Shown piece by piece: positions 36,937 through 63,998 of a stretch of DNA of 64,000 bases (position 1 is the first letter of the stretch; each line of letters begins with the position of its first letter). The notes beneath the pieces were generated by a model. That model saw only the letters and a list, made by a program, of their open reading frames with translations. It made no database searches and had not been told where the DNA came from. Source of the stretch: Trueperaceae bacterium (GTDB lineage Bacteria > Deinococcota > Deinococci > Deinococcales > Trueperaceae); the NCBI GenBank assembly GCA_034520945.1, contig JAXHNB010000006.1, positions 896,001-960,000 of the forward strand. Direction: 5' to 3'. Both the position numbers and the translations under genes were made by a program.

Positions 36937-37021
36937 TGGTGCGAGGAGCGGGACTTGAACCCGCACGGACAAAGCCACCAGATCCTAAGTCTGGCGCGTC
37001 TACCAATTCCGCCATCCTCGC
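36937..37021 (-). tRNA. tRNA-Leu(TAG)
   Basis: GCGAGGATGGCGGAATTGGTAGACGCG...CCAGA-CTTAGGA-TCTGG, long variable arm, GTTCAAGTC, encoded CCA. Confidence 0.97.
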
Positions 37022-37118
37022 GCGCGGTCCACGCTGGCGCGCGGCCGAACGGCCCGCGGAAGCTCTTGGCGACGGCCCGCGAAGAGGCACCTCGGCGCCC
37101 GTCCGGTACGAAAATAGG

Positions 37119-37195
37119 TGGGGTGGATGATGGGATTTGAACCCATGGCCCCCGGAACCACAATCCGGTGCTCTAACCCCTGAGCTACACCCACC
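37119..37195 (-). tRNA. tRNA-His(GTG)
   Basis: G-1 and C73, anticodon GTG, GTTCAAATC, encoded CCA. Confidence 0.97.
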
Positions 37196-37297
37196 GCGCA
37201 CGCGCCAGAAAGTGTACCAGACGCGCGGCCTCTGGCAAGGTCCCGGGCGACCTGGCCGCCTCGCTGGTGGAGGGCGGGGTCCCGCCAGGTGAACCCG

Positions 37298-37373
37298 TGG
37301 TGCACCAGGAAGGATTCGAACCCTCGACCTACCGCTTAGAAGGCGGCTGCTCTATCCCCTGAGCTACTGGTGC
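37298..37373 (-). tRNA. tRNA-Arg(TCT)
   Basis: GCACCAGTAGCTCAGGGGATAGAGCA, anticodon loop CTTCTAA, GTTCGAATC, CCA. Confidence 0.97.
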
Positions 37374-37383
37374 AGAAGAGGAG

Positions 37384-37459
37384 TGGAGCGGGAGACGGGA
37401 TTCGAACCCGCGACATTCAGCTTGGAAGGCTGACGCTCTACCAACTGAGCTACTCCCGC
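37384..37459 (-). tRNA. tRNA-Gly(TCC)
   Basis: GCGGGAGTAGCTCAGTTGGTAGAGCG, anticodon loop CTTCCAA, U73, CCA. Confidence 0.97.
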
Positions 37460-37667: not shown

Positions 37668-40643
37668 ATGCGACTCCGTACGCTCGGCACCCTCGAGCTG
37701 GAGGGGGCTGAGTTCACGCGCCCGAAACCGCTGCTGCTGCTGGCGTACCTGGCGCTGGAAGGCCCACAGGAGCGACGGTTCGTCGCCTCCCTGTTCTGGC
37801 CGGGACGGCGGGACGCCATGAACAGCCTCACCGTCGCATTGAGCCGGTTGCGGCAGGGTGCGTCGGGCGCGGTGCAGGCCGACGGGCGGCGGGTGTGGAC
37901 CGATGTCACCTCCGACGCGGCGCAGTTCCTGTCGTTGCTGGAGCACCGCCAGATCGAAGAGGCTCTTGGGGCGTATCACGGGCCGTTCCTGGCGGGGGTG
38001 CACCCGCGCCATGTGGGCGTCGAGTTGGAGGAGTGGATTTGGAGGACGCGGGAGTACCTGGCGGGGCTGGCGCAGGACGCCATGCTGGACTCGGCGGAGC
38101 GTGAGGCGGCCCGGCGTCGCTTCACGGCTGCCGCGCGGTCGGCCGAGAAGGCGTTCGAGCTGGCCTCGACCGCGCCCGAACCGGAGACCCTGGCCCGCCT
38201 GCACACGCTCCTGCTGGCGGGGGAGAGCCTCAAGACGGCGCGGGTGCGCCGCGAGGCCGAGGAGTTCGGCTTGTCGCTCGTCGACAGTGTCGACGCGGCC
38301 CGCGCGCGTGTGCAGGCGTCGATCGGAGGGGGCGGGCCGGGAACGTCGCACAACCTGGACGCGCTGGGCGGTCGGGACACGGGATACGTGGGGCGCGACC
38401 TTGACATGACCGAGGTGGCGACGCAGCTGTCCCGTCCGGAGTGCAGGGTCCTGACGCTGGTCGGCGTGGCGGGGGTCGGCAAGACGCGCCTGGCGCGCCA
38501 AGTGGCGCAGGAGCAACTCACGTTGGGCGCATTCCCAGGGGGCGTGATCGGGGTGCCGCTCGAGTACGTGCGTTCGCCCGAGGCCGTGCCCGCCACCATC
38601 GCGGCGGCGCTCGACGTCGACGTGCATCGCACCCAGGACGTGCATCGTTCGCTCGCGAGCCGACTCGGCGAGGCGCCGGCGCTGCTGGTGCTGGACAACT
38701 TCGAGCACCTGATGGACGCTGCGGTGGAGGTGTCGTCGCTGGTGCGGGCCTGTCCCGAGCTGACGGTGCTGGTGACCTCGCGCGAGCGACTGAACCTGGA
38801 AGGCGAGCACATCTACCGCGTCACGGGCCTGCCGTTCCCGGCCGACGACGACGTGGGGGAGGACGAGGCGTACGGGTTCGACGCGGTGCGGCTGTTCGTG
38901 CGGCGGGCGCAGCGGGCGCGGCCGGACTACGAATTCACGGCGGACGAAGTCCCCCACGTGATCAGGATCTGCCGCCTGGTGGAGGGCCTGCCTCTCGGGT
39001 TGGAACTGGCGGCGGTGTGGGCGAAGGCCATGACCAGCCGCGAGATCGCCGAGGAACTCGAACGCGACCTGGACCTGCTGATCACGCCCAGTCGGGACGT
39101 CGCCGAACGACATCAGAGCCTCCGCGCTGCGTTCGAGCACTCCTGGCGGCTCCTGGCGCACGACGAGCAGCAGGTGCTCCGGGAGCTCGCCTGCTTCCAG
39201 GGCGGTTTTCGCCGCCGCGCCGCCGGCGAGGTGGCGGGCGCCACCATCCCGATCCTCGCCTCGCTGGTCGACAAGTCGTTGCTGCGCGTGGACGCGACGG
39301 GCAGGTTCGACCGGCACCCGCTGCTGTACCAGTACACCGAGGGGAAGTTGCAAGAGGGCGGCGACCGTGCACACGAGGTGTGCGAACGCCACGCGGCCTA
39401 CCACGTGCGCCTGTTGGACGCGTACGGCGCGGAGGTGCACGCGGGCGAACAGGGCGAGATGCTCGACGTCATCGACGAGGAGCTCGAGAACCTGCGGGCG
39501 GCGTGGCACTGGACGATCGACCAGCGGCGCTTCGATCGGGTCCGTCGCATGATCGACCCGTTGGCCTGGTTCTTCAAGATCCGCGGTCGGTGGCAGGAGG
39601 GCATCGACTTCCTCGATGCGGCGGTGGGGCGCACCGGCGACGACGAAGCGGTGGACCGGTCGGTCCTGGGAAGCGTGTACACCGCGCAGGCCAGACTGCT
39701 TCAGGAGTTGGGCCGGTACGAGGAGGCCGCCCGGCTGGCGCACCGGGGGTTGGCGTCGCTGCAGCCGGACCGGGACGCGCAGGGCACGCTACGGGGATTG
39801 GACACGCTGGCGCGCGTCGCCTGGCGCTCCGGACGGTCCGCGGAGGCGAAGGTGTACTGGGACAAGGCGCTGGACGTCGCCCAGGCACACGACGATCCGC
39901 AATCCACCGTGGTGTTCCTGGGTGACGTCGCCATGATCGAGCAGGAGTTGGGCGACTACGTCAGCGCCGAACGCACCTACGGAGAAGCGCTGGAACGGAG
40001 CCGGGAGGGAGGCAACCAGCTGCACGTCATCCGCAACCTGAACAACCTGGGCGAGCTCTGCCTCCTCACCGATCGTCCAGCGAAGGCGCGCGATCTGGTC
40101 GTGGACAGCATCGCCCGCGCGGAGCGCATCTCATTTCACGGCATCCTTCCGTACCTGACCCTGAACCTGGGCCTGATCGCGTTCGAGCAGGGCGATCTGC
40201 AGGAGGCCGAAGCCAAGCATCACGAGGCCCTGCGCCAAGCGGGCGATACCGGCGATCCGTCGCTCCGGGCCCGTGCCTTGGCGGGCCTCAGCCGCTTGTC
40301 CGTGGCGTCGGGCGCGCTGGGTCGCGCCGCTGCGTACGCCGAGGAGGCGATGCGGTTGTCGTGGGAGATTCGCGACATGCCGGACGTGTTGGCGTCGGTC
40401 GTCTCGCTGGCCGAGCTGCGCGCCCAGCAGGGACGGCCAGCGGACGCCGCCGGCCTGCTGAGCCTGGTGTTGCGCCACCCGGCCACCAGCCAGATCGATC
40501 GCCGTCGCACGCACCGGTTGCTGCACGACGTGCGGAACGAACTCACGCCCAAGGCACTGGTCGATGCGATGGAACGCGGCCGGGAGCGCGGGCTGGCCGA
40601 CGTGGTGACGTCGGCACTGCAGGCGCCCTCGGCCGGGCCATGA
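37668..40643 (+). CDS. AfsR/SARP-like regulator: N-terminal wHTH/BTAD, STAND (NB-ARC) ATPase, TPR repeats
   Basis: MRLRTLG..KPLLLLAYLAL; GVAGVGKT; LLVLDNFE; VTSRE; EGLPLGLELAA; C-terminal TPRs. Confidence 0.88.
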   Translation: MRLRTLGTLELEGAEFTRPKPLLLLAYLALEGPQERRFVASLFWPGRRDAMNSLTVALSRLRQGASGAVQADGRRVWTDVTSDAAQFLSLLEHRQIEEALGAYHGPFLAGVHPRHVGVELEEWIWRTREYLAGLAQDAMLDSAEREAARRRFTAAARSAEKAFELASTAPEPETLARLHTLLLAGESLKTARVRREAEEFGLSLVDSVDAARARVQASIGGGGPGTSHNLDALGGRDTGYVGRDLDMTEVATQLSRPECRVLTLVGVAGVGKTRLARQVAQEQLTLGAFPGGVIGVPLEYVRSPEAVPATIAAALDVDVHRTQDVHRSLASRLGEAPALLVLDNFEHLMDAAVEVSSLVRACPELTVLVTSRERLNLEGEHIYRVTGLPFPADDDVGEDEAYGFDAVRLFVRRAQRARPDYEFTADEVPHVIRICRLVEGLPLGLELAAVWAKAMTSREIAEELERDLDLLITPSRDVAERHQSLRAAFEHSWRLLAHDEQQVLRELACFQGGFRRRAAGEVAGATIPILASLVDKSLLRVDATGRFDRHPLLYQYTEGKLQEGGDRAHEVCERHAAYHVRLLDAYGAEVHAGEQGEMLDVIDEELENLRAAWHWTIDQRRFDRVRRMIDPLAWFFKIRGRWQEGIDFLDAAVGRTGDDEAVDRSVLGSVYTAQARLLQELGRYEEAARLAHRGLASLQPDRDAQGTLRGLDTLARVAWRSGRSAEAKVYWDKALDVAQAHDDPQSTVVFLGDVAMIEQELGDYVSAERTYGEALERSREGGNQLHVIRNLNNLGELCLLTDRPAKARDLVVDSIARAERISFHGILPYLTLNLGLIAFEQGDLQEAEAKHHEALRQAGDTGDPSLRARALAGLSRLSVASGALGRAAAYAEEAMRLSWEIRDMPDVLASVVSLAELRAQQGRPADAAGLLSLVLRHPATSQIDRRRTHRLLHDVRNELTPKALVDAMERGRERGLADVVTSALQAPSAGP

Positions 40644-40677: not shown

Positions 40678-40725
40678 TGGTCGGGGCGGCAGGATTCGAA
40701 CCTGCGACCCCCTGCTCCCAAAGCA
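40678..40725 (-). repeat. att site: 3' half of tRNA-Pro(TGG) only
   Basis: Minus strand TGCTTTGGGAGCAGGGGGTCGCAGGTTCGAATCCTGCCGCCCCGACCA has anticodon arm, T arm and CCA. No D arm or 5' acceptor strand upstream. Confidence 0.9.
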
Positions 40726-41327: not shown

Positions 41328-41591
41328 ATGAGAATAGCAGAAAAACAGGCTGTCTACATCGTGCCTCTTCGCGATCCTCGTGTGCGCGAGCTCATTGATG
41401 TGCCCTTGTCGTCGCTCTACGAGATGGCTCGCCGATCTCCCCCTACGCTCCCTGGCGTTGTGCGCGTCGGGCGCCGCGTGATGATCGACCTGGTGGTGCT
41501 CCAGGAATGGGCGCGGTCCGCAGCGCGGTCGCGGTCCGAGCATGGGGCGACTTTGGATCTGCGCGCATCGGCCGAGGGCGATGCCTCCTAG
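41328..41591 (+). CDS. Excisionase/AlpA-like winged HTH protein
   Basis: LIDVPLSSLYEMARR...LPGVVRVGRRVMID...LQEW matches the xis/HTH_17 pattern; AAGGA RBS. Confidence 0.75.
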   Translation: MRIAEKQAVYIVPLRDPRVRELIDVPLSSLYEMARRSPPTLPGVVRVGRRVMIDLVVLQEWARSAARSRSEHGATLDLRASAEGDAS

Positions 41592-41689
41592 GCGCGCTCG
41601 TAGGGAGGCTCCGGAAGGCACGACCGGGGAGGACGTCACGGAGGCGAGTGAACACGGCCTCAGTGCCCCGTCGTCCGCGAGCCGTTGTG

Positions 41690-44179
41690 ATGACGTCAGC
41701 CGCTAACGACAAGCGTGGGGTGGGGCGTGCTGCTACCGCGGCTGAGCGACCCAGCGGCGATAGGAAATCTGACCAGTACGGCCGCCACGTGCCTGAGATC
41801 GATCCGCCGAACTGGCAGGCCGTTCCACCGGAGATCCGTGAAGCTCGCGTGTGGGTGCTTTGGCACTACGAAGAGCGGAGCGGCAGGTGGACGAAAGTCC
41901 CGTACCAGCCCGATCGCCAGCGGCGTGCCGCGTCGGACAATCCCGACACGTGGACCACGCTTGACGAAGCGGCCGCTGCCCTTCGCCCGGGTTGGGGCCT
42001 TGGCATCATGTTCCGGCCTGAGGACGACATTATGGGCGTTGACATCGACCACGGCCGCGACCCCGACACGGGCGAGCTGTTCGACGAAGCGCGCGACATC
42101 GTGGAGACCCTCAACAGCTACACCGAGGTGTCGCCCAGCGGCAAGGGCATCCACGTCCTGATATGCGCCAGCCTCGCGGAACTGCACGGTCGCCGGCGCG
42201 GCAGAGTCGAGATGTACGAGTCGGGCCGGTTCTTTACCTTCACCGGAGACGTGGTCGAGATCGGGGGGGCCGGAATGAGTTTCGGCATCGAGCCTCGTCA
42301 GGTGCAGGTCGAAGCGGTCCACGCCCGGTACATCGACCTCACAGAGCGCCAGAAAGCGCCCCGCAGCGCGCCGCGTGGGGTAGCTGTCAGGCACGATGAC
42401 CGCGAGGTTCTTGAGGCCATGTGGCGCAGCAAGAACGGCGACGCGGTCCGTTCGTTGTGGGAGGGTAGGCCTCTCCTGTGGGGCGAGGGCAATCGGTACC
42501 CGTCACAGAGTGAGGCTGACGAGGCGCTTGCGTCGCACCTGGCCTGGTGGACGAACTACGATCGCGTTCAGACGGACCGTCTGTTTCGCGCCTCAGGCCT
42601 CATGCGCTCAAAGTGGGACGAGCCACGCGGCGCCACGACGTACGGGGCGATGACCCTTGATGTAGCGTTCGCGCGGCACGAACCAGGCGATGGCTACACG
42701 GGACGGGGGCCCCTCGTCGGGTCGCGTGAATCGCTCGGCGGTGGAGGGCGATCGGGAGCGAATCCCACCGCTGCGCACCAATCGACACGTGAAGCGGATC
42801 GGGCGTTGGTGGATTACGCGGATACGGATGCCGGCAATGCCGAACGGTTCGTGCACCAGGTTGGCGGTCGGGTCCGGTATGTACCCGGGCTTGGTTGGCA
42901 TCTGTGGACTGGGACGCATTGGCAGCCCGACCCGAGCGAACTTGTACAGCAACACGCGATTGACACCCTCCGCTCAACAGGAGCTGCTGCAGAGCTTCAT
43001 GCGGAGGGCAATCGGCGACGTGATCTACGTAAGCACGTTCTGACGAGCGAATCCTTGCCGCGCCTGCGTGCCATGGTTGAGCTGGCCCGCACCGACGCCC
43101 GTATCCACACGCTCGTGGATGCCCTCGACGCCGAGGCATGGATGCTCAATGTGGAGAACGGCATGCTTGACTTGCGGACGGGAAGGCTGCACCCGCACGA
43201 TCGGAATGCGCTGTTCACCCGTGTTGCGCCAGTCCGCTTCGAGCCCGATGCTGAGCATCCCGCCCTTCACGCCTTGCTCGATGTCCTTGGCCAGGACGAC
43301 CGGGCCGAGTACCTCCGGAGCGTTGCCGGCCAAGCGCTGACCGGTCGTGGCGCGAAGCGAGCGTACGTGTGGACTGGTCCGAGCGGCACGGTGAAGAGCA
43401 CGACCGCCGATGCGCTCGCTGCCGTGCTGGGTGCATACGCCGTCAGCGTTGAGCCGAGCACGCTTGTCGTGGGTCGGCATGGAGAGGTCGCCGGCAGGGC
43501 TCGCGCCGACCTGATCGCTTTGCGCGGCAGGCGCTTCGTCGTCTCCGCTGAGTTACCGAACGGTGGGCGGCTGGATTCCGAACTCGTGAAGCGCATCACC
43601 GGCCAGGACCCCATCACAGCGCGTGCGCCGTACGCACGGACGGGTGTTACCTTTACGCCTGGGCACACGCTCGTCATGCACAGCAATCACGAGCCGCAGG
43701 TCGACTGGAGCGATGACGGCATGCGCAAGCGCCTCGTAACGGTGCCTTTTGCCGTGAAGCCCTCCAACCCAGTGAAACGCGTCCGAATGCAACTCAAGCA
43801 TGACGCAGACGCCCGTGCGGCGGTTCTGGCATGGGCCGTGGTCGGTTCAATGGCGTGGCATCGGGCGGGCGAGCAGGACCCTGAAGCGCCCGAGATCGTC
43901 CGGCAGCGAACCGCAAAGTTCTGGCGGGAGCAGGATCCATTCGCGCCGTGGGCCGAGGAGCGCCTCGATTTCGACGGCGATTCGTTCACGCCGACGGAGG
44001 ACCTCGGCCGCAACTACCAGGACTGGGCCTACGAGAACGGTGAACACCGCCAGAGTACGAAGTCGCTCGGCCGATGGCTGCAAGCGAACTCGCACCGATA
44101 CGGGATCGAGAAGGTCAGGCACGGCAAGGCCGGCACGCGCGGTTGGAAGGGCGTTCGTATCCGAAAGGAAATGGGATGA
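41690..44179 (+). CDS. Phage/plasmid primase-polymerase-helicase (NrS-1-like AEP + helical domain + D5_N + SF3 helicase)
   Basis: WVLW..KVPY, GVDID, YTEVSPSGKGIH (AEP); SEAD..L...LAWW...DRLFRASGLMR.KWD; TDAGNAERF; LNVENGMLDL; KRITGQDPITAR. Start is uncertain. Confidence 0.9.
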   Translation: MTSAANDKRGVGRAATAAERPSGDRKSDQYGRHVPEIDPPNWQAVPPEIREARVWVLWHYEERSGRWTKVPYQPDRQRRAASDNPDTWTTLDEAAAALRPGWGLGIMFRPEDDIMGVDIDHGRDPDTGELFDEARDIVETLNSYTEVSPSGKGIHVLICASLAELHGRRRGRVEMYESGRFFTFTGDVVEIGGAGMSFGIEPRQVQVEAVHARYIDLTERQKAPRSAPRGVAVRHDDREVLEAMWRSKNGDAVRSLWEGRPLLWGEGNRYPSQSEADEALASHLAWWTNYDRVQTDRLFRASGLMRSKWDEPRGATTYGAMTLDVAFARHEPGDGYTGRGPLVGSRESLGGGGRSGANPTAAHQSTREADRALVDYADTDAGNAERFVHQVGGRVRYVPGLGWHLWTGTHWQPDPSELVQQHAIDTLRSTGAAAELHAEGNRRRDLRKHVLTSESLPRLRAMVELARTDARIHTLVDALDAEAWMLNVENGMLDLRTGRLHPHDRNALFTRVAPVRFEPDAEHPALHALLDVLGQDDRAEYLRSVAGQALTGRGAKRAYVWTGPSGTVKSTTADALAAVLGAYAVSVEPSTLVVGRHGEVAGRARADLIALRGRRFVVSAELPNGGRLDSELVKRITGQDPITARAPYARTGVTFTPGHTLVMHSNHEPQVDWSDDGMRKRLVTVPFAVKPSNPVKRVRMQLKHDADARAAVLAWAVVGSMAWHRAGEQDPEAPEIVRQRTAKFWREQDPFAPWAEERLDFDGDSFTPTEDLGRNYQDWAYENGEHRQSTKSLGRWLQANSHRYGIEKVRHGKAGTRGWKGVRIRKEMG

Positions 44180-54284: not shown

Positions 54285-55086
54285 GGCCCTGTTCACACTA
54301 GGTGTTGTGATGCGGTATGCAGCTTTCGGAGGAGCAGTTCGCGCTGGTCGAGCACCTGTTGCCCAAACAGCGTGGCAATGTCTGGATCGACAACATGACG
54401 TTCCTGAACGCGATTCTCTACGTCGCCGTGAACGGGTGCACTTGGCGTTGATTGCCCAAGAAGTACGGCCGGTGGCACACGGTCTACACCCGCATGAGGA
54501 GATGGGCGGACAACGGCGTGTTGGACAGGGTGTTCGAGGAACTCCAGTTGTTGAACATCTTGAAGGTGAAGATCGAGGTGGTCGCCATCGACAGCACCAA
54601 CATCAAGGTGTACCCCGACGGGACGGGCGCGCTGAACAAGGGGGGCCGCAAGCCATTGGATGCAGCCGCGGCGGGCGGGGCAGCAAGCTTCATCTGGCTG
54701 CCGCGGGCCGGGGGTAGGTCCTCGGCTTCGCGTTGACGCCCGGCCAAGCGCACGACGCGCCACCCGGACGCGACCTGCTGCAGGAGATCGGCCTGGACAA
54801 CATGCAACTCCCGCTGATCATGGATCGCGCCTATGAGGGCAACGAGACACGATGGTTGGCGCAGTCCCTCGGCTTCGATCCGGTCGTGCCGCCCCTGCAG
54901 ACGCGCCGGGACCCCAGGGCGTACGACACGGAGCTGTACAAGCGCCGCAACGAGATCGAGCGCCTGTTCGGCCGCATCAAACGCTTCAGGCGCGTCTTCA
55001 CCCGCTACGACAAGACCGACCTCATGTTCAGCGCCTTCATCACCCTCGTCTTCATTGTGGACCTACTCCGCAGTGTGAACACGCCC
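54285..55086 (+). mobile_element. IS5-family (IS427-like, two-ORF) insertion sequence with inactivated transposase
   Basis: IRL GGCCCTGTTCACACT vs reverse-complemented IRR GGGCGTGTTCACACT (13/15); TA on both flanks. orfA from ATG 54317 has TGA at 54449; orfB frame has TAG at 54715 and ends YKRRNEIERLFGRIK. Confidence 0.9.
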
Positions 55087-55126
55087 TAGCCGCCAGGTAC
55101 TTGACGTTCTCCACCCCATCAAGACC

Positions 55127-55876
55127 GATCGCGCTGTGGGCGGCGTGGGCGTTGCCATTGCGTAGGAGGCTGGTCAGGACGTACTGATCGGCCTCCTGCT
55201 GGAACTGGATGGCGGCGACCAGCGGCAGGTAGCAGTGCCCGCCGTAGAAGCCGTTGAACAGTGCGCCCTGCTGGGTGCCGTGCGTGGGGTCGTCGGTGCC
55301 GTCCAGGTCGATCGTGATGCGTTTCGCCCGGCCCCGCCGGCGCGTGCGGTGCCGCTCGATCACGCACTCGGCGAGCGCGACGCCCATCTCGAACACTTCG
55401 CGCCGGGTCACGTCGTTCTCGAAGCGCGACAGGGTCGGTTGCGACGCGAGGTCCCGCCCGCCCTCGGGGTCCCGGTCCAACACCAGCTTGTGCATAGGGT
55501 CGTCCCGCAGGCGATCGGCGTCGTTGCCGTCCTCGTACCCGCACGCGATCCCCACCACCCGCTGGCGGACCACGTCCCGAAGAGGGTGCTGCACGCGTTC
55601 CGGGTTTCGCCGGTCCACCAGGACCGACGCCATCGCGTTCGTCAAGCCCAGCCGATCGTCCGCGCCGCGCAACAAGACCGCGCCCCCGTCGCTGGTACTC
55701 ACCGGGTGATCGAACCGGGCGACGACCGGCTTGGTGAACCACCCCTCGAACAGAACCGACTGTCGCGTGCTATCCTCGCTCATTAGAAGGCCTCCAACGT
55801 GTAGAAAGTTCGTGCCTCACACCCTTTCTACCACGTTGGAGGCCTTCACTCCTTCAAGACTCATGAATTATCCCGG
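55127..55876 (-). mobile_element. Truncated IS1380-family copy (left end plus 5' half of transposase)
   Basis: Homologous to 57513-58262; IR CCGGGATAATTCATGAG at 55860-55876 flanked by CTAG; homology ends at about 55127. Confidence 0.9.
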
Positions 55877-56538: not shown

Positions 56539-58262
56539 CGCGATTTATTCATGAGAGGCGTGCTTAGGGGGTTTCGGGGGGGCGGGGGGGTTGGGCGTCG
56601 TGATTCCGGGGTGGGGGCTTGTCGGTGGGCGCGGTGGGGTCTCGTTGGAGGCGTTGAGGGCAGTTCGGGCGTCGTGAACGGCGAATTTTTGGTGTCGAAG
56701 GGCCGGTTGGGGTGTAGGGGGTCCGCTCGCCGCCGGAGTTCGGCGTCGACGGGACACACGGCGGGGGTCTTGGTCCGCCTTGGCGTGGGTCAGGCGGTGG
56801 TGGTGGCCTGGAGGGAGCTTGCCACGCGGGCCCATTCGCGCCGCCAGGGCGCGTCGCGGGGGAGGTGCAGCACGATGCGGCGGGTGGAGGTCTTGATCCA
56901 CGCGCCGAGCTTGATGAGGCGTTCGCGGAGGGTGCCCGCGTACGCGCGGGCGAGGCCGGTGCCGGTCGCGTGCAGCCGGAGTTCCTGGTAGAGGGCGTAC
57001 GCGGCGGTGTGGACCAGCAGGCGGGCTTGGTTGGCGAGGAACCGCGTGCAGCTGAGCCGGCCTGCGGCGAGGTGCTCCTGGAGTTCTTTGAGGCGGTTCT
57101 CGACGTCGCCGCGCTTGGCGTAGATGCGGCGGTAGACGGTCTCCGGGTCGGCGCTGATGTTGGTGATGATGAAGCGGGGGTTGTCGCGCGCCTCCCGTCC
57201 GGGGTACCGGGTGACCTCCGCCTTGTACGCGACCTTTCTCTTGTGCGGCCAGCTGCGCGCCTGGTAGGGGGCGTGCCCGTACCGGCGTTTGCTCTGCCCG
57301 CTCGCCCGGCTGGCCTGGCGGGCTTCTTCTAGGAGGGGTTCCGCGAGGCGTTCCAGCACCGCGTTCTTGGCCGGCGCCACTACGAACTCCACGCCTTCTT
57401 CTTCGAGGAACGAGAAGATCTCGGGCGTGGCGAACCCGCCGTCCAACCGCACCCGCAAGCGCGCCTTCGGGAACGCATCGCGGAGGCGCACCAGGATGCG
57501 CCGCAGCAGGGGGATCGCGCCGTGGGCGGCGTGGGCGTTGCCATTGCGTAGGAGGCTGGTCAGGACGTACTGGTCCGCTTTCTGCTCGAACTGCATGGCG
57601 GCGACCAGCGGCAGGTAGCAGTGCCCGCCGTAGAAGCCGTTGAACAGTGCGCCCTGCTGGGTGCCGTGCGTGGGGTCGTCGGTGCCGTCCAGGTCGACCG
57701 TGATGCGTTTCGCCCGGCCCCGCCGGCGCGTGCGGTGCCGCTCGATCACGCACTCGGCGAGCGCGACGCCCATCTCGAACACTTCGCGCCGGGTCACGTC
57801 GTTCTCGAAGCGCGACAGGGTCGGTTGCGACGCGAGGTCCCGCCCGCCCTCGGGGTCCCGGTCCAACACCAGCTTGTGCATAGGGTCGTCCCGCAGGCGA
57901 TCGGCGTCGTTGCCGTCCTCGTACCCGCACGCGATCCCCACCACCCGCTGGCGGACCACGTCCCGAAGAGGGTGCTGCACGCGTTCCGGGTTTCGCCGGT
58001 CCACCAGGACCGACGCCATCGAGGTCGTCAAGTCCAGCCGATCGTCCGCGCCACGAAGCAGGACCGCGCCCCCATCACTCGTGCCGAGCGGCTGATCGAA
58101 CATGGCGACCAGCGGCTTCGTGAACCACCCTTCGAACAAGACAGGCTGTCGCGTGCTATCCTCGCTCACTAGAAGGCCTCCAACGTGTAGAAAGTTTGTG
58201 CCTCACACGCTTTCTACCACGTTCGAGGCCTTCACGCTTTCAAGACTCACGATTTATCCGCG
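56539..58262 (-). mobile_element. Full-length IS1380-family insertion sequence
   Basis: Imperfect terminal IRs CGCGATTTATTCATGAG / CGCGGATAAATCGTGAG (12/17) around a 459-aa DDE transposase; flanks are CTAG and TTAA. Confidence 0.88.
56790..58169 (-). CDS. IS1380-family transposase
   Basis: SDGG, GYEDGND, LASQPTLSRFEN, VDLDGTDD, RLDGGF, YAKRGDVENRLKE. Confidence 0.93.
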   Translation of the reverse strand: MSEDSTRQPVLFEGWFTKPLVAMFDQPLGTSDGGAVLLRGADDRLDLTTSMASVLVDRRNPERVQHPLRDVVRQRVVGIACGYEDGNDADRLRDDPMHKLVLDRDPEGGRDLASQPTLSRFENDVTRREVFEMGVALAECVIERHRTRRRGRAKRITVDLDGTDDPTHGTQQGALFNGFYGGHCYLPLVAAMQFEQKADQYVLTSLLRNGNAHAAHGAIPLLRRILVRLRDAFPKARLRVRLDGGFATPEIFSFLEEEGVEFVVAPAKNAVLERLAEPLLEEARQASRASGQSKRRYGHAPYQARSWPHKRKVAYKAEVTRYPGREARDNPRFIITNISADPETVYRRIYAKRGDVENRLKELQEHLAAGRLSCTRFLANQARLLVHTAAYALYQELRLHATGTGLARAYAGTLRERLIKLGAWIKTSTRRIVLHLPRDAPWRREWARVASSLQATTTA

Positions 58263-58492
58263 TTAAGTGGATCGTCGAGCCGGAACCCTCCTCCGTGTGC
58301 GTCGAAGGGCGCTCAGACGGGCCTGCGCCCCCCTCCACGTGTCCACGGCCGTCCATCCACGCGGCGTTTCGAGCCTGTCGTGTACGAGGGCTTCACGGTG
58401 GCTTTCGGGGGGCTTTGGAACGGCATCGGACTGCTACGCGGGTCCCGTACCCGCCCAAACCGTACGGCTTTCAACCTGCTAGCGTTGAGTAC

Positions 58493-59152
58493 ATGTCAAG
58501 GCCAGTACTTGCCGTCGGATCGATCGCTCTGGCTCTCTTCCTTGTCGCGATTGTCGCGCTGGCGATACAGAAGCCCGACGTAGGGAATGCGTTGGTAGCA
58601 GCGGGCACGCTGGGCCTGGCCAGCGTAGCTTTGGCGCAAGTCTTCTCCGACGCTCGTGCGCGGGAGCTGGATCGTAGGCTCGCCCTCTCGTGGAAGGACG
58701 TCGATCTGACCAGTGACGGCAGCCTCCGGCTCCGGATGGTCGCGAACCTTGGGAATTATCCCGTCGTCGTCCGCTACTTCGCCATCGTCAATCGCCAAGG
58801 TGAGCGGATCGCCCACAAATTCGGACCCGTTCTCGCCCTACCTCCAGGCCGTGCCGACGGGCACCAAGTGAGCCTTGCCGCCACGAATCCCCGTTTGCTG
58901 GAGGACATGTACGACCGGGTCCCCGCCCAGGTTCTTGAGAAGGAGCGCTGGCTCGATGAAGCTTACAAGGTGCACCTCGTCATTCAGCACGGAGGGCGGC
59001 CGGGCGCCGACATTCACGCGTGCATGCCTGTCGGGCGTGTAATCAAGCAGGGCCTGCAGGTCGCCTTCTCGCACGTTCGCGTGGACTATGACGTGCGACC
59101 ACCGAGAGCCCCCCAATCGGTTGATGAGGATGAAGCCATCGGTGCCGGATAG
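58493..59152 (+). CDS. Hypothetical protein with two N-terminal TM helices
   Basis: MSRPVLAVGSIALALFLVAIVALAI...ALVAAGTLGLASVALAQV followed by a beta-rich domain (LRMVANLGNYPVVV). Confidence 0.7.
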   Translation: MSRPVLAVGSIALALFLVAIVALAIQKPDVGNALVAAGTLGLASVALAQVFSDARARELDRRLALSWKDVDLTSDGSLRLRMVANLGNYPVVVRYFAIVNRQGERIAHKFGPVLALPPGRADGHQVSLAATNPRLLEDMYDRVPAQVLEKERWLDEAYKVHLVIQHGGRPGADIHACMPVGRVIKQGLQVAFSHVRVDYDVRPPRAPQSVDEDEAIGAG

Positions 59153-59576
59153 GTCCAGATGGCCACAAGCCGGAAACCGGCATCGGACAACCAAATGGTC
59201 GGTGGGCGTCTGCATTGGCCTCAGCTTCACCACCTCGCCCTGCCGACGTGGGCAACTCTTTCGCTCGGCCCACAGAGGGAAGGCGCGAGTGGCGGTGCTG
59301 CCGAACTGTAAGGCACCGGAAGCGTCGTTACTGCCGGTTGCGCCTGGCTACACCGTCGCGACATCGCCGACAGTGCCGCGGGAGTGGCGACAAGACGTGT
59401 TGTCACAACCTGGAGACACACGACCTAGCTGGGCAAAACGACAGTGATTGGATCAGTGTTCAAGAAGTGACAGCTCGACGCCCTTCACAAACAAGGTGAC
59501 TCAAGCATTGGTGTTTGGTGCTCTACCGCCAAATAGCATGGCCTGATGTGTAGGAGCGGCATGCGAGACTAAGTGC

Positions 59577-62500
59577 GTGCCAGAACCAGGAGCGCTTGCA
59601 GCAGCATGGGTCATTGGATCGCTACTGGTGGAAATTGCAAAGGCAGAGGCATCTAGCTTCATCCGAAGGGCCGCGGGCGCTGGGCCTGTGGAACGTGCGG
59701 CGCAGACCACTGGAAAGCACTTTGTTGACAAATACGACGGTGTGGCTGACCAAGTACAGCAGTGGGGGCAATCGAGGGCGTTCGAGGTACTTCTGGAGCG
59801 GGCTCGCCGGGGTGAACCCGTAGACTTGCCGCGAGTTGCCGTAGGAAGCTTCGTCGAGGAATCTGGCTTCGATAGCGGCGAAAATCGCAGTACGGAGGAA
59901 GAGGCCGCAGCGGTGTTGCGTTACTTCCTTGAGGAACTCAAGAGGGAGTTGTACGGGCCTGGAACCGTGGCTGTGATGCAACATGTCGATGCTAAGTTTG
60001 AAGATCTTGAGCGCCGTACGTTACCTAAGCTTCTCGGCACCGATGAGCAACATGGTGGCCCGATTCCTGGCTACGAGGAGTGGCAGGTTCGTCTCGACGT
60101 AGTGAAACGCATGCTGACGCGTGGGCACCTAGACTCTGCCCAAGAGATGTTGAGTGACATCCAGAAGGAGGTGGAGGAGAAGGGAATTGACCTTCCAGCG
60201 ACGCTACGGTTTCGTCTGGACACGAACTTGGGAGCTGTCTACCTCCACAACGACTGTCTTGAACATGCTGCTGAGGCGTTTGTCAGGGCCTTCGAGCACG
60301 AGAATGATTCCGCACGCGCCCTAGCCCATCGCGCCTACGCCGAGCTCATCAGGGATAATCCGGCAGGCGCAAGCGCGTACGTCGAAATGGCGCTTCGGAA
60401 AGACCCCGATCACGACGTTGCGTTGGCGACGTTGGCTCACACCCTTGAAGCACAAGGGCGAGACGCCGAAGCAACACAGTTGTGGGACAAGGCGAGTTTG
60501 GAGAAGCCTGAACTGCTTGTCGCGCTGTGTTATGTCGAATTATCCAAGAGGGAATACGACCGCGTCGAAGCGAAGCTAAGCGGTTACCAAGTCGATGCTT
60601 GCGAGAGTCCGCGATTGGGGGTTGCCCATGCCCATGCGCTTCTTGGGCCGTTGATTGAGGTCTATAGAGCGGATCACCCCCCATCAGATGCCATTCCAGA
60701 AGCCCACCTCAGTAGGCTGCGCAATGCTCTGGCCATCCTAGATTCTGTCTTGGAGCCTGACTCGGCGCCACTACCTCTAGAGTCTCGGGTGCAAGCCCTG
60801 TCGCTACGGGGGCTGGCACTAAGTGCGCTTGGACGGCGGGACCAGGCCATTTCAGACTGGGAGCGATTGCTGGCAATGCGTCCGAACGATCCCCCGACGC
60901 TCCACAATCTCTTCGTGGCGTACCTCTCGGCTGACCGCGAAGGCGCAGCAGAGGGGGCCTTCTTGCAGTTGCCTACGGAACAGCGAGATCTGCCTGTGGT
61001 ACTCGCTTACTGCGAACTTCTGGTTTCGCAAGGAAGGACTGACAAAGCTGCTGGGTGGTTGGCGCCCTTGGAGCGCGACTCGCCAAATGGCAGTGAGGAG
61101 CGCGACTTAATTGCCGCCACCCGAGCGGTGCTAATTGCCGAATTAGAAGGTAATGATGCAGCTGTTGGATTCCTCGATGCTGAGCTGCGTCGTTGTGGTG
61201 TGTCCGCCGTTGCTTGGGCTTACCTTGGAGAACTCCAAGCTCGGTGTGGCAATTTCGAAGGTGCGATACAAGCGTTTGACACGGCTCTAGCACGAGCGAC
61301 CGGAAACACTCGCATGCGTATTGAGCGTGCATTTGCAGGGTTGTTGGCCGCCAGGGGCGAGGTCAGGCGTGCAGCGGAGATTGCGCAAGGGCTAGCACAG
61401 CGCACGAATAGTGAACGCGACTGGGATATGTACGTGTGGTGCCTCTACGAGGCGAGGGAGTTCCCTGCCATTCACCAGGCCATTGACGACCTCACGCGGC
61501 TGGGTGTGCCTCAGACGGCGACGGTGCGTGAGGTCCGGGCCAGATTAGCCATCTTTGAAGGGGACTTGGCATCGGCACGATCGCAGTTCGAGGCGTTGGC
61601 AAGGGATTATCCGGCTCAAGCGTTCGAAGTTGATGTTGCGATCATTCATGTCCGGTTAGGGAATTTCGAGGCGGCCGTCAGAGTCGTTAGTCGTATGGAA
61701 ATGGGATCGCTTGAGGGGCGGGCATTGCTACGTGCGATATCGGTCCTGAACGTTTCAGGGCGCCAAGATCTCGCGCTGCCATATGCGTATGCCGCCCTCC
61801 GAGAGCGCTTCACCGATCCTGAAGTTCACCATCTCTATTTGGCTGTGTTTTTCGCGGCGGAGCGTGAGGGCCGCATCCGTGACCCAAAGGTCGTCGAGGT
61901 TGGGACGGCTGTACGATTGCAGATGGACCTTGGTGCACGCTGGGTCAGCATACTTTCGGACCCAAAGCCCTATCTCTTGGGGAGCGAATTTGGTCCGGAT
62001 CACCCAGCCTCGAAAGCGCTCCTTGGGCTTGCCGTTGGTGACGAGGTCTATCTTCCGAACGGTGAAGCCGATGGCTCTACCGCAGTTCTCGTAGAGATCC
62101 AAGACAAATTCGTTCGGGCCTTCCAGGATGTAATCACAGACTACCGAAGCCGCTTTCCTGAGGACAAGAGCCTACAGAAGTACACTGCCGACCTAGATAG
62201 CCTTAATCCGTTGGGTGGTGTGCTGGAGCATGTCGTTCAGCGAAACGACGTTGTGACGCGCGCGCTTGAGAACTACCGCTCGGACGTACTTCTCACAGTT
62301 GGTAGCGTCGCAAACGCCACACGGCAATCGTACTTCGCAGTGTGCGAAGCCTTCATTGCTGACAGGGCGCTCGCACTCGATTCCACTACTCATGCGCCTT
62401 CGGAGCTAAGCTCAGGAGAGGCTCTCGTGGCACATCCCGGAGCCGTGGTCGAACTCACGTCCTTAATGCTGTTGCACTGGCTTGGGCTCGGTGAGGCGTT

Positions 62501-63347
62501 CGCTCGAACACTTGGGCCCTTGTATGTCCCACAAGCCACCGTCGACTTGCTCCGACAAGAACTCCAAGACTTCCGTCAAGAGGAGCAGCAGGCGGGGACG
62601 TTAACAATGCACGATGGTCGGTTGGTGATGCATGATTCAGACCAGCAAGATCTGCATGCAAGGCGGCGCCTGCGAGAGGAACTGCTTGAGTTTGTTACCT
62701 CGCGCTGCCGGATCGTTCCAGTCCGCGCGCTGACGCGTCGTCCGGCTAATGAGCTAGAAGCGTTGTCAACGCTGTGGTCGGACAGTGCGTATGGTAGCGT
62801 CCTGGCCGCTCAGGAACGTGGCTTGCCTCTGGTGTCCGATGATCGGAAGCTCCGTGCGTGGGCCGAGAACCTGTTCCAAGTCAGCAATGTGAGTAGTCTG
62901 GTACTACTGGGTGTCCTACAGCGCAAACAACAACTCGCGGGCTTCGACTACCATGCGATCGCAATCGAGTTGGCCCGCATGAACGTTCAAGTACCGTGGA
63001 TTACCTTCGAAACCTTGCAACGAGCCATGAACGAGAGCGGTTATGTGGTCACAGAGGACGTCCGATGCCTTCTTTCTGCGTTGGCGCAACCACGTGTGAG
63101 TGCTCGATATGCCACCGGCGTCCTCGTGCGGCTCTTGAAGGACGTTTTTGTCGTAGGTCGGCCAGCAATCTCTCGACTGGCTTGGGTGGAAGCCTGTCTT
63201 GACTGCCTGTGTGAACACAGGACGCTGCAAGACGTGATGCCGCTGGTCAGGGGCTTCATTTCACATCATTTCGAGCTGCTACCGTTGCATGAACGCGAAG
63301 CGGTGAGGCTTGTTGAGGCGTGGTATGCACGCCGCTTGCGTACATAG
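59577..63347 (+). CDS. TPR-GreA/B-C-terminal-PIN domain protein (candidate conflict/anti-phage protein)
   Basis: Long TPR array; GreA/B-C-like VEVGTAV...DHPASKALLGLAVGDEV...LVEI; PIN-like VVELTSL...LYVPQAT...SVLAAQERGLPLVSDD. Confidence 0.8.
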   Translation: MPEPGALAAAWVIGSLLVEIAKAEASSFIRRAAGAGPVERAAQTTGKHFVDKYDGVADQVQQWGQSRAFEVLLERARRGEPVDLPRVAVGSFVEESGFDSGENRSTEEEAAAVLRYFLEELKRELYGPGTVAVMQHVDAKFEDLERRTLPKLLGTDEQHGGPIPGYEEWQVRLDVVKRMLTRGHLDSAQEMLSDIQKEVEEKGIDLPATLRFRLDTNLGAVYLHNDCLEHAAEAFVRAFEHENDSARALAHRAYAELIRDNPAGASAYVEMALRKDPDHDVALATLAHTLEAQGRDAEATQLWDKASLEKPELLVALCYVELSKREYDRVEAKLSGYQVDACESPRLGVAHAHALLGPLIEVYRADHPPSDAIPEAHLSRLRNALAILDSVLEPDSAPLPLESRVQALSLRGLALSALGRRDQAISDWERLLAMRPNDPPTLHNLFVAYLSADREGAAEGAFLQLPTEQRDLPVVLAYCELLVSQGRTDKAAGWLAPLERDSPNGSEERDLIAATRAVLIAELEGNDAAVGFLDAELRRCGVSAVAWAYLGELQARCGNFEGAIQAFDTALARATGNTRMRIERAFAGLLAARGEVRRAAEIAQGLAQRTNSERDWDMYVWCLYEAREFPAIHQAIDDLTRLGVPQTATVREVRARLAIFEGDLASARSQFEALARDYPAQAFEVDVAIIHVRLGNFEAAVRVVSRMEMGSLEGRALLRAISVLNVSGRQDLALPYAYAALRERFTDPEVHHLYLAVFFAAEREGRIRDPKVVEVGTAVRLQMDLGARWVSILSDPKPYLLGSEFGPDHPASKALLGLAVGDEVYLPNGEADGSTAVLVEIQDKFVRAFQDVITDYRSRFPEDKSLQKYTADLDSLNPLGGVLEHVVQRNDVVTRALENYRSDVLLTVGSVANATRQSYFAVCEAFIADRALALDSTTHAPSELSSGEALVAHPGAVVELTSLMLLHWLGLGEAFARTLGPLYVPQATVDLLRQELQDFRQEEQQAGTLTMHDGRLVMHDSDQQDLHARRRLREELLEFVTSRCRIVPVRALTRRPANELEALSTLWSDSAYGSVLAAQERGLPLVSDDRKLRAWAENLFQVSNVSSLVLLGVLQRKQQLAGFDYHAIAIELARMNVQVPWITFETLQRAMNESGYVVTEDVRCLLSALAQPRVSARYATGVLVRLLKDVFVVGRPAISRLAWVEACLDCLCEHRTLQDVMPLVRGFISHHFELLPLHEREAVRLVEAWYARRLRT

Positions 63348-63449
63348 AGCGATTCACCATGCCGTGGCGCTCGTGCCGCTACGCACTGGGGTCGCGCGTC
63401 CTGCGCGTGCTCGACACTGAGCGTGCCGAGTGGCGAGGGGGCGTTCACG

Positions 63450-63998
63450 TCAGTACTCCCAGTTCTCGTGCGCCAGTGGGCCTTGGTTGAGTTCGTCGCG
63501 GCGTAGGCGCCAGTGGGGCATGACTTCGTCCATGATGGCGACGAAGCGGGGGCCGTGGTGGCGTTCTCGGAGGTGGACCATCTCGTGTACGAGTACGTAT
63601 TCGAGGCAGGCTGGTGGCTTCTTGGCGAGTTCGAGGTTCAGCCAGATCCGTTGGGCGTCGGGGTTGCAGCTGCCCCATTTGGTCTTCATGCGTTTGATGC
63701 CCCAGTGGGCTGGCTGGACGCCAATGGTGGGTTCCCAGGTGGCGATGAGGTCGGGGATGCGTTCGCGTAGGTGGTTTCGGTACCAGCGGTTGAGGATCTC
63801 GCGTCGTTTGGAGGGGTCGGTGTCGGGCCTAACGCGTAGGTGGAGGGTGGTGTTCCCGCGGATCGCAATGGAGGGTGGTCCCTCGTGGTGGGTGACGGAG
63901 AGCCGGTAGCGTTGGCCGAACAGGTAGTGGCTTTCGCCGGTGACCATGTCGCGTTGGGATTGGCGTGCTTGCGTTTGGAACGCTGTGCGCTGGCGTTT
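63450..63998 (-). CDS. YgjP/DUF45 (M48/SprT-like) metallopeptidase, 5' end outside the window
   Basis: GESHYLFG, IKRMKTKWGSC, LNLEL, YVLVHEMVHL..HHGPRF; frame is open to the window edge. Confidence 0.9.
   Translation of the reverse strand, partial: KRQRTAFQTQARQSQRDMVTGESHYLFGQRYRLSVTHHEGPPSIAIRGNTTLHLRVRPDTDPSKRREILNRWYRNHLRERIPDLIATWEPTIGVQPAHWGIKRMKTKWGSCNPDAQRIWLNLELAKKPPACLEYVLVHEMVHLRERHHGPRFVAIMDEVMPHWRLRRDELNQGPLAHENWEY

Follow-up and report, generated by a model that had tools for sequence, protein, structure and literature searches.

A rare helical N-terminal domain on a TPR-GreAB-C-PIN protein from a Trueperaceae mobile island: a candidate one-protein anti-phage system

Introduction

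The TPR-GreAB-C-PIN (TGP) proteins were described computationally by Kaur, Iyer, Burroughs & Aravind (eLife 2021, PMC8195603). In that description, a constant but fast-evolving core of TPR, GreA/B-C and PIN domains is preceded by an N-terminal head that is either EAD10 or 1 of 13 effector domains (among those named are REase, HNH, PNPase, TIR, SIR2, trypsin, BTLCP and 'HetE-N1'), and the genes mostly stand alone. In the model put forward by the authors, GreA/B-C (here called Gre-C) engages the beta-prime coiled-coil of RNA polymerase (RNAP), PIN cleaves the extruded transcript, and the head serves as a back-up suicide effector. Many TGP proteins are annotated in the same source (fig2-data1) as headless, 'TPR+GreAB-C+PIN', for example proteins of 1100-1188 aa. 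Here we describe a TGP gene with an unnamed helical head, found at positions 59577 to 63347 of a stretch of 64,000 nucleotides (the window) from a Trueperaceae bacterium (assembly GCA_034520945.1, contig JAXHNB010000006.1, positions 896,001 to 960,000 of the forward strand).

An initial annotation of this DNA, made by a model from the letters and a list of open reading frames (ORFs), had stated that no experimental mechanism was known for such proteins. That statement is outdated. As described in a preprint (Ibarlosa et al., bioRxiv 10.1101/2024.11.07.622273), Escherichia coli ECOR25 encodes the 1094-aa TGP protein Agp together with an adjacent 109-aa protein, Bab, and T5 and some Drexlerviridae are countered by the pair through abortive infection. 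Bab consists of a small helical domain ('Babybell') in which an N-terminal hydrophobic helix is cupped by four helices, and Agp activates it through an amyloid motif of about 20 aa (BASS11) present at the Bab C-terminus and the Agp N-terminus. The membrane-targeting Bab kills and relocates to the cell periphery, and no activity of Agp independent of Bab was seen. Defence was lost in mutants of the amyloid motif, of Bab helix 1 (G11K), of Gre-C (S628L, L634P) and of PIN (D762N). An N-terminal motif, 'MEPIS', is described there as common to Bab, Bell, Hell, Avast2 and some bNACHT NLRs, and similarity within this superfamily can be limited to the N-terminal helix. In the supplementary table of Kaur et al., 'HetE-N1' is the label of both a small upstream gene and the N-terminus of Agp-like proteins of 1088-1126 aa, and it corresponds to the motif shared by Bab and Agp.

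The protein described here agrees with the catalogued TGP systems in the order TPR, GreA/B-C, PIN, in being encoded by a single gene without conserved neighbours, in the variability of the head, and in a sporadic distribution on mobile DNA. It differs in its head, which has no Pfam match and is none of the nine types (EAD10, REase, HNH, PNPase, TIR, SIR2, trypsin, BTLCP, HetE-N1) named in the portion of that paper available to us. Proteins of similar length are listed in the Kaur table as plain 'TPR+GreAB-C+PIN', and a related unnamed head may be among them. A literature search returned no description of a helical head fused to a TGP protein, though Table S1 of the preprint may list such proteins. 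The TGP core is thus known; what is new is an unnamed, rare head that is common to TGP proteins and STAND NTPases.

Results

An intact TGP gene whose public start hides the N-terminal helix

The ORF at 59577..63347 (+) begins with GTG and encodes 1256 aa with 0 internal stops. Its GC content is 0.578, compared to 0.632 for positions 37500-64000 of the window and 0.708 for positions 1-36900, and the intact, lower-GC frame of the initial annotation was thereby confirmed. The public gene call (P0003) is 1239 aa long and begins at V18 (GTG 59628), by which the hydrophobic N-terminal helix is lost. Position 59577 was taken as the start because it is the first start codon after an in-frame TGA at 59544 and because aa 1-17 can be aligned to the N-termini of five relatives; in the alignment of the start region, residues 4-128 correspond to residues 3-123 of P0008, and residues 4-101 to residues 2-99 of P0010. 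The corrected start restores the most conserved feature of the head, which the public call had hidden. A promoter and terminator scan of 58100-63600 gave nothing exceeding shuffle expectation.

The order of domains in the protein is head, TPR array, GreA/B-C fold, PIN fold and helical tail:

59577..63347, + strand: whole gene, 1256-aa TGP protein with a novel head, GTG start
59577..60041, + strand: N-terminal helical head, aa 1 to about 155; a family without Pfam, PADLOC or PDB match; invariant P37, A41, W63
59586..59672, + strand: head helix 1, aa 4-32; small-residue-rich core at aa 5-20 (PGALAAAWVIGSLLVEI), directly after M-P-E-P
59940..60035, + strand: long head helix, aa 122-153; main predicted self-association interface
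60069..61826, + strand: TPR/helical-repeat array, aa ~165-750; matches Pfam TPR_19, TPR_2, TPR_1, TPR_14 and others, and consensus TPR proteins in the PDB
61872..62105, + strand: GreA/GreB C-terminal-like domain, aa 766-843
62106..62420, + strand: helical linker between Gre-C and PIN, aa 844-948; predicted helices, with model residues 112-125 at pLDDT (predicted local distance difference test) <50
62421..62936, + strand: PIN domain of the PF20698 type, aa ~949-1120; acidic residues E959, D990, E1034, D1088, D1089
62937..63344, + strand: C-terminal helical domain, aa 1121-1256; conserved among TGP relatives

The TPR, GreA/B-C (placed at about 61890-62110) and PIN regions of the initial annotation were all recovered close to where it had put them, by Pfam and by a profile of relatives. 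Many Pfam TPR families matched aa ~210-703, with TPR_19, TPR_2, TPR_1, TPR_14 and TPR_17 above their cut-offs. The PIN domain was identified by Pfam PF20698 ('PIN-TPR-GreABC') over aa 957-1097 (62445-62867; E 4.8e-21; 75.9 bits against a cut-off of 27.8; 137/138 model positions), and the sites described earlier as a first acidic Glu and a retained SDD are E959 and S1087-D1088-D1089, which with D990 and E1034 complete the acidic set. A full-length alignment with three other TGP proteins was obtained, in which aa ~773-845 are aligned to the region of P0008 that passes Pfam PF01272 (34 bits, cut-off 26.9); PF01272 also matches P0004 and P0007 in the same region, below threshold. A nine-relative profile searched against the PDB matched GreA/GreB (2pn0, E 3.8e-6) and a GreA/Gfh1 chimera (E 5.2e-4). 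PF01272 (GreA_GreB) itself had no match at E<=1 in a Pfam scan of the 1256-aa protein alone. The Gre-C domain is considered present because of the P0008 match and the match of the relatives' profile to 2pn0. NCBIfam added nothing specific for the protein. Membership in the TGP family (PF20698) is, in our judgement, close to certain, and the earlier assignment to the computationally described TPR-GreAB-C-PIN conflict systems was correct.

The head is a helical domain with a conserved hydrophobic N-terminus

The head was all-helical in an AlphaFold2 model built from six sequences, with a confident core at aa ~35-130 (pLDDT 75-94). Residues P37, A41 and W63 are invariant, joined by F117 and G129 when the STAND members described below are added to the alignment. 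The first residue of every head member is Met (or is encoded by an alternative start codon); it is followed by Asp/Pro/Glu, then Pro, and then 14-15 hydrophobic residues rich in Gly/Ala/Ser: MPEPGALAAAWVIGSLL in this protein, MDPITMTLLFAAAAPL in P0011, (M)DPGIIATLLVGLAG in P0008, and MTADPLLSGLVVNLASS and MDQAFADALTTLGQVGLGMA in the two STAND members. In agreement with the hydrophobic helix noted initially, the Kyte-Doolittle value of helix 1 is 2.03 over 15 residues from aa 6. Four of six head members had a 15-residue maximum of 1.9-2.2 and two had 1.4, and in every case it fell within the first 6 residues. Averages were about 2.0 for 15 residues and about 1.5 for 19.

Self-association of the head was predicted when four copies were modelled together. 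The interface score ipSAE was 0.79 (0.80, 0.79 and 0.79 in the separate runs) compared to 0.00 for the best of three controls. The tool's mark was attained by 20/30 solved homo-pairs and 1/23 single chains in a calibration that used two copies and the tool's own alignments and that holds only roughly for a four-copy run. In the complex, partner pLDDT was at least 71 and contact agreement at least 56%. The predicted interface is formed by the long helix (aa 122-153) and by residues 11-28 of helix 1.

Searches for known domains gave little. Stray Pfam matches of the heads were EAD11 (E 0.16, one member) and AppA_4HB (1e-4, one member). Features from the ESM Atlas, used as leads only, pointed to unnamed clusters of 137-156 aa (0.89-0.91), NNH2 (0.89) and NNH5 (0.84); a search with NNH2 (PF22734) found 0/364 genomes of the phylum and 0/14 controls and was uninformative. 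A wide fold search of the head with VIA-align returned nothing usable. The suggestion made at the outset that the N-terminus might be a distinct, non-nuclease module is borne out.

The head occurs on TGP proteins and on STAND NTPases

When aa 1-165 were searched exhaustively with phmmer against 1.84 billion representative sequences, six proteins were found at E<=0.001, including the window's own. Two are full-length TGP proteins, P0008 (1268 aa, 40% identity in the head) and P0007 (1311 aa); the others are P0011, a truncated TGP protein of 760 aa, and the short ORFs P0009 and P0010. A search with the head profile added P0013 and P0014. In the 364 genomes of the phylum, the head profile (A1) matched three, namely the genome of origin and two others (E 2.2e-11 and 9e-7). 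Both foreign matches are the N-termini of STAND NTPases of about 1285 aa that carry no TPR, Gre or PIN domain and that give no Pfam signal beyond a sub-threshold nSTAND_NTPase5 P-loop, with no other effector domain. Alignment of the head profile to one of them by hhalign gave a probability of 96.5% (E 7.5e-10, 142 columns). The two genes are:

L051:5655-9512, + strand, and L052:3409-7260, - strand: head-bearing STAND NTPases of ~1285 aa, no PADLOC match

One of these genes is flanked by a ThsB-like TIR gene (PADLOC 1e-125) and brxC, and the other adjoins an integrase and a Tn3 transposase. As a separate observation, the two STAND proteins resemble an uncatalogued NLR-like defence family.

The position occupied by the new head holds nucleases in related proteins. 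Six other TGP genes of the phylum (loci L011 to L016) were compared, and their heads differ: Mrr_cat REase heads were identified by Pfam in loci L012, L014 and L015, an Mrr-type motif was also seen by eye in the heads of L011 and P0004, and the relative at L013 has an HNH-like head (by eye). The head of the L016 TGP protein is helical and probably a distant relation of the new one (hhalign probability 75%, E 2.5e-5). In L011, a NACHT protein and the TGP protein next to it have a common Mrr-like head (36% identity over 188 aa, E 2e-36):

L011:785-5677, + strand: NACHT protein, 1630 aa, Mrr-like REase head
L011:6054-10277, + strand: TGP protein, 1407 aa, same Mrr-like REase head
L013:4374-8507, - strand: relative of 1377 aa with PF24407 (HTH_upst_double_PIN) upstream of the PF20698 PIN, no TPR match

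The L013 protein represents a different architecture around the PF20698 PIN domain.

These alignments demonstrate, at the level of sequence, that heads are exchanged between TGP and NACHT/STAND scaffolds in the phylum. Because the new head is found both on TGP proteins and on unrelated STAND scaffolds, in the slot of REase and HNH heads, it behaves like an effector head. The N-terminal ~155 aa form a helical domain, hitherto undescribed, in the slot of killing domains (Mrr-type REase, HNH), and in the STAND members it appears to be the sole visible candidate effector.

The head was present in one copy in each of the three genomes, and in the genome of origin it was single even at E<=1. Neighbouring reading frames showed no motif in common with aa 1-40 (best local score 32 among 112 frames, compared to 36.5 +/- 4.0 for shuffled heads). 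Because of the single copy per genome and the lack of a motif shared with neighbouring frames, the head is not considered a paired adaptor.

Word-indexed searches were of little use. One with the whole protein gave, among 8000 scored candidates, four matches, which were its own gene call, the true relative P0004 and two TPR-only proteins. The corresponding search with the head profile gave two matches among longer proteins and three among proteins of near length, all three apparent TGP fragments. Single-protein search of genome contigs found no relative, and the STAND pair (A6), searched in the same way, found only itself. A metagenome scan with the A4 alignment yielded 29 loci, of which 2 contain the P0008 gene and the other 27 match the TPR part only. 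With tblastn against 72,556 plasmids, neither the head nor the STAND head had a match at E<=1; the whole protein matched 11 records, none across the head (best NC_017771.1, query 173-1256, 23.7% identity).

The gene is carried by an integrative island with type I restriction-modification

The TGP gene is cargo of an integrative island of about 36 kb at tRNA-Pro that also bears type I restriction-modification. Its left edge is marked by 48 bp that repeat the 3' half of tRNA-Pro(tgg) exactly; the tRNA itself, with two tyrosine integrases beside it, lies ~36.3 kb downstream, past the end of the window (L002 13964-14040). GC content is 0.63 inside the island compared to 0.71 in the flanking chromosome. 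On the opposite strand, directly downstream of the TGP gene, follow genes for a YgjP-like peptidase, hsdR, a DUF4357 protein, hsdS, hsdM and an ankyrin-repeat protein, so that the vicinity of defence genes looked for in the initial annotation was found, with type I restriction-modification adjoining the gene. The features of the island and its surroundings are:

40678..40725, no strand: left att-like repeat, 48-bp exact copy of the tRNA-Pro(tgg) 3' half; left edge of the island
41507-44179: primase-polymerase/D5_N replication protein, within the island
55052-55783, - strand: DDE_Tnp_1_4 transposase, partial copy of an insertion sequence (IS), within the island
56790-58169, - strand: DDE_Tnp_1_4 transposase, full copy, within the island
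58493..59152, + strand: upstream ORF, 219 aa, hydrophobic N-terminus, orphan
63450-63998: YgjP-like metallopeptidase, overlapping the window end, at the hsdR end of the type I restriction-modification genes
L002 4232-5122, - strand: DUF4357 protein, between hsdR and hsdS

PF20698 was found in 9/364 genomes of the phylum (own included) and in 0/10 other genomes of the genus, a patchy distribution that would be the pattern expected of mobile defence genes.

The ORF at 58493, which lies 425 bp before the TGP start and had been put forward as a possible partner, was rejected as such: it had no Pfam or PADLOC match, no match in the 363 other genomes of the phylum and no counterpart beside P0008, and it shares no motif with aa 1-40. 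The two transposase copies have 300 nt in common at 97% identity (55127-55426 and 57513-57812), a sign of IS activity close to the TGP gene on its upstream side. An NB-ARC/TPR protein of 991 aa (37668-40643, + strand) was rejected as part of a defence island, having a BTAD/SARP-like N-terminus and lying outside the att repeat; it sits between a four-tRNA cluster (36937-37459) and the left repeat of the island, and is regulator-like.

Discussion

That the gene described here serves in defence is likely, and with less assurance we favour the head as its effector. For the two taken together, that is, a one-protein anti-phage sensor-effector of the TGP ('Agp-like') family with the head as death effector, the chances appear evenly balanced. 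They fall just short of even for the more specific proposal that the head is membrane-active, a membrane-targeting death domain fused in cis that replaces Bab and the amyloid relay. By analogy with the family, Gre-C would dock at the secondary channel of RNAP, the TPR array and Gre-C would report interference of a phage with transcription, activation would probably proceed through oligomerisation, and PIN may cut RNA. The head is pictured as a helical sheath round the small-residue-rich hydrophobic helix 1 (M-P-E-P-GALAAAWVIGSLL). Once the sensor is activated, heads would cluster, helix 1 would be freed and inserted into the membrane, and the cell would die. The job done in E. coli by a separate Bab and an amyloid relay would here be done by a domain fused in cis and free of amyloid.

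The likeness to Bab/Agp lies in Agp being a TGP protein, in the need for Gre-C in defence and in a small helical death domain with an N-terminal hydrophobic helix. In contrast to E. coli, where the death domain is the product of the separate Bab gene, a helical domain of ~155 aa is fused to the sensor here; no small Bell-type partner gene was found adjacent to it, and the search for a motif common to aa 1-40 and neighbouring frames, in which BASS11 itself was not scored, was negative. The likeness of the new head to Babybell was judged by eye only. Like the Bell, Hell, HeLo, MLKL-4HB and CC(ZAR1) domains and the 'MEPIS' N-termini, the head stands at the extreme N-terminus of an immune sensor, is all-helical and is predicted to self-associate. 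It also begins with Met-(acidic/Pro)-Pro and a short Gly/Ala/Ser-rich hydrophobic helix, and it occurs on STAND NTPases. It differs in length, about 155 aa compared to ~80 aa for Babybell and ~100 aa for Bell, and in having no Pfam, PDB-sequence or fold match; the 'MEPIS' likeness, too, is by eye only. We would only tentatively regard the head as a new family of executioner domains on TGP and STAND sensors, which would either belong distantly to the HeLo/Bell 'MEPIS' superfamily or be its independent analogue. Compared to GreA, GreB and Gfh1, the protein has no Gre N-terminal coiled-coil finger, its Gre-C is embedded in a chain of 1256 aa and RNAP binding is predicted only.

Several results weigh against the proposed explanation. 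In the AlphaFold2 model, helix 1 (aa 4-32) has pLDDT <50 and its packing is not confidently modelled, and its best 19-residue hydropathy, 1.56, is under that of a classical transmembrane segment. Most of the self-association interface is the long helix; predictors readily bundle such helices, and self-association suits a scaffold equally well. Foldseek gave 0 matches of the head to the PDB at E<=0.001 and so no fold link to HeLo, Hell, Bell or MLKL; among PDB sequences, profile A1 had no match below E 0.3; and nine head sequences scanned with Pfam at E<=10 yielded no EAD, NNH, HeLo or nuclease family. The short head matches P0009, P0013 and P0014 are, from their alignments, fragments of TGP genes and not Bab-like small proteins, being read in this way because P0013 extends into the start of the TPR array. 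The STAND examples with the head number just two. The PADLOC check proposed initially did not recognise the system, for which it has no model; its only match, PtuA (E 0.0086 over 40 residues), was taken as chance. PIN catalysis is also uncertain in the family, since the first acidic position (the aa 959 column) is His in 3/9 aligned TGP relatives, E1034 is conserved in just 6/9, and the D762N mutant was, by the preprint's account, destabilised and its phenotype ambiguous. The three relatives with His are the REase-headed proteins of loci L011, L014 and L015. Judging by this pattern, nuclease-headed TGP members may have lost PIN catalysis or retain it in altered form.

We think it rather unlikely that the head is a scaffold for oligomerisation or auto-inhibition and that the PIN RNase, docked on RNAP through Gre-C and cleaving transcripts or tRNA/mRNA, is the sole effector. 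This was the model of the initial annotation and is the 'first-line' half of the proposal of Kaur et al. It is consistent with the full acidic set of the PIN domain, with the many catalogued TGP proteins that the same source annotates as headless, with the predicted self-association through the long helix and with the lack of a fold match linking the head to pore-formers. However, STAND NTPases devoid of a PIN or other recognisable enzymatic effector carry this head too, and there it is the sole candidate; it also fills a slot that holds nucleases in relatives; moreover, a soluble scaffold leaves the conserved hydrophobic N-terminal helix unexplained, and in Bab/Agp no Bab-independent activity was detected for the TGP protein. 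The part of the initial model in which RNA is cleaved on infection is kept here as a proposal; in Bab/Agp, according to the preprint, killing is by Bab and not demonstrably by a PIN RNase.

An adaptor function of the EAD type (Death-like), in which the head would recruit a separately encoded effector by homotypic contact, is improbable. The archetypal TGP head, EAD10, is an adaptor in the account of Kaur et al., and the new head resembles such domains in being all-helical, about 150 aa long, predicted to self-associate and common to TGP and STAND sensors. Against this stand the single copy in the genome at E<=1 and the one match in each of the two other genomes, with no second, effector-bearing protein with the head in the genome or neighbourhood; the score of the neighbouring frames, which was below that of shuffled heads; and the lack of a match to any Pfam EAD family. 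Still less probable is a role outside immunity, either as a module for addiction or stabilisation of the island or as a regulator linked to transcription that happens to lie on mobile DNA. PADLOC is silent on the protein, which is known here from sequence alone, and the closest full-length relative, P0008, has as neighbours housekeeping-type genes (S1-domain protein, cyclophilin), an unknown 214-aa ORF and an IS1595 fragment. In contrast, a family member confers phage resistance experimentally, as the preprint reports; the distribution is patchy, relatives bear nuclease heads, the gene adjoins type I restriction-modification on an integrative island, and ThsB and BrxC genes flank one of the STAND genes bearing this head.

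Few immune sensors have been proposed to watch host RNA polymerase. TGP proteins are among them, and only Bab/Agp has been studied so far, where the output depends on a second protein and an amyloid relay. A single-chain TGP protein with its presumed executioner in cis is a simpler object in which to ask what the core senses and how activation reaches the effector. If the reading of the head as death effector is true, the protein would be an 'all-in-one Bab/Agp', in which transcription surveillance is wired to membrane suicide without an amyloid relay, in parallel to fungal NLRs with fused or amyloid-recruited HeLo domains. If the head is membrane-active, the theme of HeLo/Bell/MLKL-type death domains would be extended to a new bacterial lineage and a new class of sensor.

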